From Eledone cirrhosa (Eukaryota): a stretch of 64,000 nucleotides of DNA. The translations under genes and the position numbers were made by a program. The notes under the pieces are model-generated. The model worked only from the letters and a program-made list of their open reading frames with translations. It was not told the DNA's origin and searched no databases. Location of the stretch: assembly GCA_964016885.1 (NCBI GenBank), contig OZ024743.1:217744001-217808000 (forward strand), in the 5' to 3' direction. Shown in pieces: positions 33,876 to 34,700 of the stretch. Position 1 is the first letter of the stretch, and every line of letters starts with the position of its first letter.

Positions 33876-34700
33876 AATTTCGTTTTCATTCTATTACAAC
33901 TTATCGTTTTCGGTACGCCTGGCGGAACTCACTCGATATGCAAATTAGGCTGCTCAGCCGTTAATTTTCATAAGGAAAGTATATCGAACGTTCATAAGGA
34001 AAGTATATCGAACGTTCAACCATTTAGCAGAAGGGTATACAGTGCTGATGATAGCTAACAAGCTTGAAACTAGTACATCGTTCCTGTGTCAGTGTTGAAC
34101 AAAAAGGTGACGTGGTTGCCTTAACACCGTACGGCATAAATTCAGGCTGTTCAGTTTGTTTACAAACGAACAAGGCGAGCGTTATTATAAGCGTCCGCTA
34201 AACTGATACGTACATATATGTATTTGTACCTGTATGTATATATATATATATATATATATATATATATATGCATGCTACTGTACGTCTGTGTACATATATG
34301 TATGTACGTATACATACATACTTACATTTAAGTAAGTGCCGTACTAAGAGTGAGAAATGAAATTTCGTTTTCATTCTATTACAACTTATCGTTTTCGGTA
34401 CGCCTGGCCGAACTCACTCGATATGCAAATTAGGCTGCTCAGCCGTTAATTTTCATAAGGAAAGTATATACTTTCGAAAGTTCAACCATCTGGCAGAAGG
34501 GTATACGGTGCTGATGATAGCTAACAAGCTTGAAACTAGTACATCGTTCCTGTGTCAGTGTTGAACAAAAAGGTGACGTGGTTGCCTTAACACCGTACGG
34601 CATAAATTCAGGCTGTTCAGTTTGTTTACAAACGAACAAAGCGGGCGTTATAATAGGCGTCCGCTAAACTGATACGTACATATATGTATGTGTACCTGTA
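33876..34700 (+). mobile_element. Family C tandem dimer (retrozyme-like), two intact hammerheads 466 nt apart
   Basis: aaatttcgttttcattctattacaac at 33876 and about 34360. Hammerheads at 34039-34081 and 34505-34547 (acggtg-CTGATGA-tagct aaca agctt-GAAA-ctag-TA-catcgt). Confidence 0.9.

Follow-up and report, generated by a model that had tools for sequence, protein, structure and literature searches.

The Window Locus

Positions 33876-34811 of the window (the whole 64,000-nucleotide stretch of DNA analyzed here) contain two head-to-tail units of a non-coding repeat. Each unit has a CTGATGA core, a stem II of agct/agct, GAAA, the palindrome ACTAGT, and a GUA triplet. The features of this dimer and of the Penelope-like element (PLE) beside it are listed below, with the strand in parentheses.

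33876..34359 (+): unit 1, the more decayed copy; its 5' end immediately follows a (TA)n tract
33937..33948 (+): U6-type upstream element (PSE-like) TATGCAAATTAG, copy 1; it includes the octamer of an earlier, sequence-only reading
33967..34018 (+): 24-nucleotide tandem duplication, unique among the fetched loci, with two altered TATA boxes at 33979 and 34003
34029..34085 (+): type-I hammerhead 1; core 34045-34051, GAAACTAGTA at 34066-34075, predicted cut after 34075
34076..34541 (+): predicted 466-nucleotide cut-to-cut monomer; branched fold with its ends closed by an extended stem I, z -7.7
34233..34269 (+): internal (TA)n tract, variable in length and part of the unit
34331..34389 (+): 59-nucleotide "tail" between the fixed 3' termini T1 (~34330) and T2 (~34389); internal in the window dimer
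34360..34811 (+): unit 2, truncated at 34811; many genomic copies match it at 98-99% identity
34422..34433 (+): U6-type upstream element (PSE-like), copy 2
34464..34470 (+): TATA-like box GTATATA, 42 nucleotides past the upstream element; predicted start about 34495-34501
34495..34551 (+): type-I hammerhead 2, of family-consensus sequence; core 34511-34517, GAAACTAGTA at 34532-34541, predicted cut after 34541
34699..34805 (+): internal (TA)n tract of unit 2
34812..36740 (-): neighboring 5'-truncated Neptune-type PLE, consisting of the ORF end and 3' UTR; candidate partner family
34851-34880 (-): variant hammerhead of the neighboring Neptune-type PLE
near 36695-36740: short inverted tail arm of the neighboring Neptune-type PLE

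The sequence-only reading of this DNA had placed two type-I hammerhead cores here, 466 nucleotides apart. Both cores are present, and the predicted cuts are separated by that interval. The octamer and internal TA tracts that it described are also found, with ATGCAAAT at positions 33938 and 34423. It had called both hammerheads intact, which holds for copy 2, whose core matches the family consensus, but not for copy 1, which is damaged by an A.C mismatch in stem I. Stems I and II together have a value of -1.8 kcal/mol in copy 1 versus -7.0 kcal/mol in copy 2. Stem II of the window hammerheads is 4 base pairs long and is closed by a U.U at its base. A scan of the window with Rfam at the gathering threshold returned no match.

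Copy 1 carries about 8 substitutions, the stem I mismatch among them, in addition to the 24-nucleotide duplication, which lies over the TATA box and alters it. Copy 2 differs from its subfamily majority at 3 sites. The two units differ from each other at 12 of 323 sites and have in common one variant that is absent from all other fetched loci. Unit 2 is truncated against the 3' UTR of the Neptune-type fragment on the opposite strand. The dimer has no inverted arm, and neither of the normal 3' ends of the family is present. The locus is a decaying, damaged two-unit copy of a high-copy non-coding hammerhead repeat.

Older Copies in the Window

Three further copies lie at 6.5-8.4 kb.

6523..6890 (+): older-subfamily arm with the broken core CUGACUA; a near-duplicate of the copy at 8.0-8.4 kb, with 2 differences over 340 nucleotides
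7629..7989 (-): older-subfamily inverted arm
8004..8384 (+): older-subfamily arm with the broken core CUGACUA

These copies are 75-78% identical to the dimer units in the body of the repeat, which places them in an older subfamily. The sequence-only reading had taken them for the same family, circularly permuted and present in both orientations. The relationship and the two orientations stand. The copies belong to an older subfamily, however, and the apparent permutation is variable 5' truncation of tandem arms. The CUGACUA change breaks the C3-G8 pair, and only 6 exact copies of this variant exist genome-wide. Because its intact parent has 9,371 exact copies, the idea that a ribozyme-dead subfamily spreads in trans was rejected. 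The copies at 6.5 and 8.0 kb resemble a local duplication.

Family Size, Conservation, and Predicted Fold

The genome searched comprises 3.0 Gb in 1,796 contigs, and its repeats point to an animal, perhaps a cephalopod. The exact 40-nucleotide core of the young subfamily has 10,122 copies, and its reversed control has 0, so the core cannot be attributed to chance. A 34-nucleotide core of the older subfamily has 9,371 exact copies, and a 30-mer common to both subfamilies has 15,418; the reversed control was again 0 for each. In all, the family amounts to about 20,000 hammerhead-bearing units. The unit is 430-520 nucleotides long, and no coding frame of 150 or more amino acids was found over it. 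The number of cores per locus ranges from 1 to 16 (49 loci). The repeat is also present in sequencing-run contigs of organism A and partly of organism C (4 runs, with the kind of contig unclear), which has no bearing on expression.

Clustering of 95 loci placed 77 in nine subfamilies with at least three members and left 18 singletons. Across the nine subfamily majorities, the only changes in the hammerhead are at N7, in loop 2, at one stem I pair that is compensated, and in the region of the stem I bulge. Post-insertion decay in the older subfamily runs at about 2-2.7% in most regions, the core among them, and at 1.1% in GAAACTAGTA and 0.6% (2/351) in the upstream element; these figures were not used, as the loci had been picked by similarity.

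The cut-to-cut monomer of the older subfamily is predicted to fold with a z of -7.2 against shuffles, and that of the sister family described below with -9.9. In the predicted fold, the two ends are joined by the extended stem I, and conserved helices pair the stretch following the cut with sequence that precedes the predicted transcription start. Among 18 real monomers, changes on both sides of a pair were seen at 9 of 120 pairs versus 0-5 for controls with slid partners; most of the double changes reflect one event each separating the two main subfamilies, and the alignment tested is the one from which the structure was drawn. Covariation and folding z speak for selection on the monomer at the RNA level.

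A sister family has a 469-nucleotide unit, a G-C closed stem II, and 1,413 exact cores, and matches the window family at 59% of columns in a global alignment. It was seen at L021:581-1049, L133:1-690, and L300-L324, in arrays of more than 25 units, with the same upstream element and the two-ended rule given in the next section. A third hammerhead repeat occurs at L133:5985-6630 (minus) and in L040 and L041. It has a 310-nucleotide unit, a U.U at the base of stem II, and the palindrome ACGCGT. It is TA-flanked and, by eye, has no U6-like element.

Anatomy of the Insertions

The loci mapped were the 49 that hold the first 100 exact cores on contig C1 (in chromosome order) and 29 best hits. Many are pairs of arms joined head to head, each arm ranging from a fragment of a unit to several units. 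The outer 3' ends fall at one of the two fixed sites T1 and T2, which are 59 nucleotides apart, and are followed by (TA)n with few exceptions. All 30 two-armed insertions with both ends called had one T1 end and one T2 end; the other 48 of the 78 loci are single-armed, incomplete, or uncalled, and the classifier gave a few spurious internal T1 calls. Sister family insertions follow the same two-end rule with a tail of 65-70 nucleotides. The insertion ends sit in (TA)n, where a target-site duplication cannot be discerned. Neither T1 nor T2 coincides with the ribozyme cut.

A total of 143 5' ends were collected, of which 37 in or beside a TA tract were dropped and 106 kept. None of the 106 is at the ribozyme cut, the nearest being 4 and 6 nucleotides off, and the ends are scattered over the unit. 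Unit positions 120-140, close to the predicted start, show a modest bump with 11 of the 106 ends (mean per bin, 5.6), in a distribution biased by the selection of loci for an intact core or full unit.

Units of one insertion are nearly uniform. Median divergence is 0.3% both within an arm (145 pairs) and between arms (95 pairs) versus 5.1% between loci (7,843 pairs), with the long array L096 dominating the within-insertion medians (72 of the 145 pairs and 48 of the 95). Arm-to-arm means are at most 1.2% in 12 of 19 loci and 1.9-10% in the other 7, at least 3 of which hold two separate insertions. At 25 informative sites, the units of one insertion have a common haplotype, bar one or two sites. 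One RNA, or one source locus, therefore feeds both arms and all units. The template may be a circle, which is the simplest candidate, or an uncut homogeneous multimer; both fit the uniformity and the 5' ends.

Two other ideas were discarded. A hotspot of recombination around the cut, taken as a possible sign of circles, gave no signal, with 43 of 154 versus 42 of 146 incompatible pairs and no excess across the cut. A simple fold-back origin of the inverted arm was rejected by inspection, as either arm may be the longer and the ends differ by the fixed tail.

PLE insertions show a truncated arm in inverted orientation and carry a tail at just one of their ends (PMC8557442). Purified PLE protein cuts both strands and begins reverse transcription at two internal sites of the RNA; in vitro, it used unprocessed RNA, and hammerhead mutants were without effect (PMC11167929). 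The sequence-only reading had proposed a non-autonomous hammerhead tandem element mobilized by PLEs, and the TA targeting, head-to-head arms, and one-ended tail bear this out. The family is likely mobilized in trans by a borrowed Penelope-like reverse transcriptase and endonuclease, to judge from this footprint.

Penelope-Like Elements

This genome has at least three PLE families that carry long open frames and insert into (TA)n, one Neptune-type and two Hydra-like. The clade labels rest on zinc-finger spacing as given in PMC8557442, and the CxCX5C linker was found in one of the two Hydra-like families. The Neptune-type PLE has a 775-amino-acid frame with RT and GIY-YIG domains by Pfam and a tail of about 62 nucleotides. 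Pfam gave no clear call on the PLE fragments of the window or on the Hydra-like frame. The three families studied have 3' ends of their own, unlike that of the unit.

The sequence-only reading had allowed that the unit might be only the terminal repeat (pLTR) of a longer autonomous PLE. PLE coding hits were found at 18 of 136 family loci, and directly upstream in the same sense at only one (L061), where the PLE ORF is broken off inside the endonuclease domain. A search for the partner by homology to the Neptune 3' end gave a 12-nucleotide match that is not significant, as 471 of 2,000 shuffles score equally.

L075 and L100 each hold a retrozyme arm fused head to head with the short end of another PLE family; in L061 and L054, the arm is joined to other PLEs. 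A genome-wide pattern for hybrid joins within 60 nucleotides of one anchor gave 1 match. Such joins are thus too rare for a partner PLE to be named. The junctions at L061:2238-3650, L075, L100, L293, and L054, where an arm meets a PLE ORF or another 3' arm, may be template switches or insertions of two RNAs.

Several other elements were encountered. The Neptune-type PLE (34851-34880 minus, and L127-L142) has a variant type-I hammerhead with a U3-A8 core and a palindromic stem III. This hammerhead escapes a CUGANGA search, and the 775-amino-acid frame is open in many copies. One Hydra-like family (L248-L282 and L294-L299) has a 3' 33-mer with 12,037 exact copies, a tail of about 80 nucleotides, and often very short head-to-head pairs in TA tracts. 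A pattern search found no canonical hammerhead in it. Hydra-like PLE remnants occupy positions 44285-46000 and 150-1417 (minus) of the window, and L283-L292 hold a very abundant related family with open frames of up to 809 amino acids. Another abundant repeat flanked by TA has its 3' end at positions 36740-36975 (plus), with a stretch resembling a degenerate hammerhead. Two adjacent LINE-like elements at 49300-60500 (minus) have endonuclease-like and RT-like frames broken by frameshifts or stops in the list of ORFs.

A U6-Type Upstream Element and TATA Box

The motif TATG(C/G)(A/T)AAT(T/G)AG at -77 to -79, together with GTATA at -31, is present in 5 of 5 promoter-bearing host genes, namely three distinct U6 genes, the best U6atac gene, and the MRP gene; this count omits the U6 (2 of 6 inspected) and U6atac (7 of 8) hits that lack the element and look like promoterless copies. 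The U6-type element was found in none of nine regions upstream of host U1, U2, and RNase P.

The repeat unit contains TATGCAAATTAG followed 42 nucleotides later by GTATATA, as seen in copy 2 and in the family. In the sister family, the identical 12-mer is present in 23 of 28 units, with GCATATAA at 41 nucleotides. The upstream element is invariant in all nine subfamily majorities. A TATA box follows the element in 252 of 269 family hits in the fetched DNA (overlapping loci counted) and is altered in window copy 1. Chance placed the element and TATA box together in 3 of 200,000 monomer shuffles, the motif and spacing window having been defined after the data were seen. The spacing between them is 41-42 nucleotides in all three families versus 46-48 in all five host genes, or about 5 nucleotides short. 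Other matches to the motif in 2.0 Mb, both strands, are the U6, U6atac, and MRP loci, a few variant family copies, and 4 unrelated sites, none of which (0/4) has a TATA box.

The start is predicted at 34495 from the TATA box and at 34499-34501 from the element, that is, at the 5' arm of hammerhead stem I. Past the predicted start, the sense strand is free of T4 for 307, 308, and 359 nucleotides in the three families, and the same stretches contain 1, 2, and 4 occurrences of A4 or longer. A T4-free stretch despite A4 runs is as expected for Pol III. Runs of T4 to T7 are present in the tail and promoter region, are passed by every RNA that yields a full unit, and would halt much Pol III read-through.

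The upstream element is also one arm of a predicted RNA hairpin, with its partner TAATTTTCAT downstream. This role could account for its conservation. Changes between subfamilies sit in the partner arm and not in the upstream element.

Taken together, the unit probably carries a working snRNA-type promoter, read by polymerase II or III. The Pol III promoter of the schistosome hammerhead repeat is of the tRNA type. It comes to lie at the 3' end of the cut RNA, so tandem copies are needed, and newt satellite 2 has an internal snRNA-type Pol II promoter (PMC2220036, PMC6765202).

A U1/U2-type promoter was also tried. Local alignments to the sequence upstream of U2 were mostly non-significant (7 to 231 of 300 shuffles), and this candidate was set aside. 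The RNase P RNA gene (upstream region L232) is without the U6-type element and has an ATCAGT motif that is also seen upstream of U1 and U2, which may mean that it is transcribed by Pol II in this genome.

Proposed Cycle and Alternatives

The explanation we favor, with somewhat better than even confidence, is a non-LTR retrozyme with an internal U6-like promoter whose RNA cuts itself, circularizes, and is inserted by a PLE into (TA)n. The upstream element and TATA box of a unit would probably start transcription at the 5' arm of its own hammerhead, and some transcripts would read on into the next hammerhead. Hammerheads would then pair through ACUAGU and cut after GUA, a step that is highly probable for the family and less so for the damaged window locus. 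The product would be a monomer with its ends held by the extended stem I, and, a little more probably than otherwise, it would be ligated into a circle. In general, unit-length RNAs cut by the hammerheads are predicted, and their circularization appears likely. The insertion step leaves a visible footprint and is the most secure, with a PLE protein as the presumed enzyme. The protein would very probably nick both strands of a TA tract, and two cDNAs would be primed at two internal sites 59 nucleotides apart and then joined head to head, each variable in length and often longer than one unit. The promoter sits upstream of its own start, and copying beyond one unit would restore it ahead of a hammerhead.

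An extended form of this explanation is put forward tentatively, at rather less than even confidence. It holds that a retroelement captured an external U6-type host promoter and retains it by way of a ribozyme-made RNA circle, on which the PLE primes twice and rolls. If true, the thousands of two-armed insertions are genomic records of rolling-circle retrotransposition by a Penelope enzyme acting in trans.

Circles are unnecessary for the data, because uncut multimers fit as well. The same element and the same PLE insertion with an uncut read-through multimer as template, leaving cleavage and circles as by-products or to another step, is an alternative that we consider unlikely. The use of unprocessed RNA and the indifference to hammerhead mutants in vitro (PMC11167929) speak for it, the lack of 5' ends and of a recombination signal at the cut site suits it equally, and the small bump of 5' ends lies near the predicted start. 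Arrays of up to 16 near-identical units, however, would demand that transcription run on very far, through several T runs in each unit. The core is also constant, bar N7, in the nine subfamily majorities and the sister family, and the conserved helices connect sequence after the cut with sequence upstream of the predicted start. Doubtful to a similar degree is the view that the U6-like boxes are no working promoter and are kept as an RNA hairpin or a relic, with transcription coming from neighboring promoters. The spacing below that of all five host genes, the pairing of the element with TAATTTTCAT in predicted folds, and the T runs in the read-through region would fit this view. Against it, subfamily changes hit the partner arm and spare the element, the 12-mer is exact in the sister family despite a match at 59% of columns overall, the orientation, TATA box, and predicted start agree, and related repeats have internal promoters (schistosome Pol III, newt snRNA-type Pol II; PMC2220036, PMC6765202).

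That the unit is merely the pLTR of a rare, unsampled autonomous PLE is very improbable. Xenopus retrozymes are often homologous to pLTRs (bioRxiv 10.64898/2026.07.22.740005), and PLE coding sequence does lie directly upstream in the same sense in L061, but this locus stands alone among the 136 and its ORF is cut, three PLE families have different 3' ends of their own, and the unit is found as pure arrays. Least probable is a satellite spread by DNA-level duplication with a vestigial hammerhead. Its tandem units are homogeneous within arrays, and the window copies at 6.5 and 8.0 kb look locally duplicated, yet the dispersal over many contigs, the fixed 3' ends at TA tracts, the scattered 5' truncation, and the T1/T2 rule are set against it, and it is largely refuted because of this end structure.

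Comparison with Known Systems

By every feature examined in its sequence, the family is a metazoan non-LTR retrozyme, with cleavage and circles predicted. As in the retrozymes of Cervera and de la Pena 2020 (PMC7229834), the units are short, non-coding, tandem, and AT-rich, each has one type-I hammerhead, and the monomer is predicted to pair strongly with itself. Axolotl HHR_Amex2 likewise has a U.U at the base of stem II, and axolotl HHR_Amex1 a palindromic stem III (PMC7229834). Both axolotl hammerheads cut better as dimers, HHR_Amex2 much better (PMC7229834). The window hammerhead, with its weak helix III, is of the kind that works as a dimer. The unit of 430-520 nucleotides compares with 150-450 bp in those retrozymes, for which circles have been demonstrated, whereas the window family is known from its DNA (PMC7229834). 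Head-to-head arms, a tail, and a U6-type promoter are seen here and have no such description in the available text of PMC7229834.

The sequence-only reading had labeled the hammerheads minimal, and this label does not fit. The minimal PLE hammerhead (min-HHR) has a helix II of 7-8 bp, a helix I of 4-5 bp, and no helix III, while the canonical metazoan type-I form has a helix I of 6 bp, a helix II of 4 bp, and a palindromic helix III of 1-2 bp (PMC4209133). The window hammerheads have the canonical dimensions, with an extension of helix I.

Co-occurrence and pLTR homology, chiefly in vertebrates, have led to the proposal that animal retrozymes use PLE machinery, and only 1 of 9 Xenopus retrozyme dimers cleaved in vitro (Li, Clavereau, and Pollet 2026, bioRxiv 10.64898/2026.07.22.740005). 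Here, by comparison with the account in that preprint, pLTR homology is undetectable and the link to PLEs is the insertion footprint itself. This footprint resembles that of PLEs of the Neptune and Hydra clades, as described by Craig et al. 2021 (PMC8557442) and Frangieh et al. 2024 (PMC11167929), in its partial tandems, inverted 5'-truncated arm, one-ended tail, (TA)n targets, and two internal priming sites. Unlike PLEs, the unit has no ORF and its arms are multi-unit. The tail is 59 nucleotides versus 30-40 bp in the PLE papers (PMC8557442, PMC11167929) and ~62 and ~80 nucleotides in two local PLE families.

Newt satellite 2 and Schistosoma Sm-alpha are likewise hammerhead repeats with a promoter of their own that need tandem copies to propagate (PMC2220036, PMC6765202). 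Unlike the newt (snRNA-type, Pol II) and schistosome (Pol III) repeats of those papers, the unit has the upstream element of host U6, U6atac, and MRP genes with a TATA box at a shorter spacing. Searches of the literature turned up neither this family nor a retrozyme with a U6-type promoter, though supplements, Repbase, or Dfam may list the family, and the text examined does not describe a two-ended tail rule for retrozymes.

What moves and what transcribes animal retrozymes are two open points that these observations address. The two-site Penelope tail without detectable homology to the nearest PLE points to mobilization in trans, and the host U6 and MRP genes allow the promoter and start site to be predicted precisely. 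The retrozyme class is already known; the family illustrates it more sharply without being a new system, and it is the family, not the damaged locus, that is of interest. The proposed circle-to-array cycle is open to direct test in vitro, as the family is young, counts ~20,000 units in clonal subfamilies, and offers exact priming sites along with several active PLE candidates that target TA.
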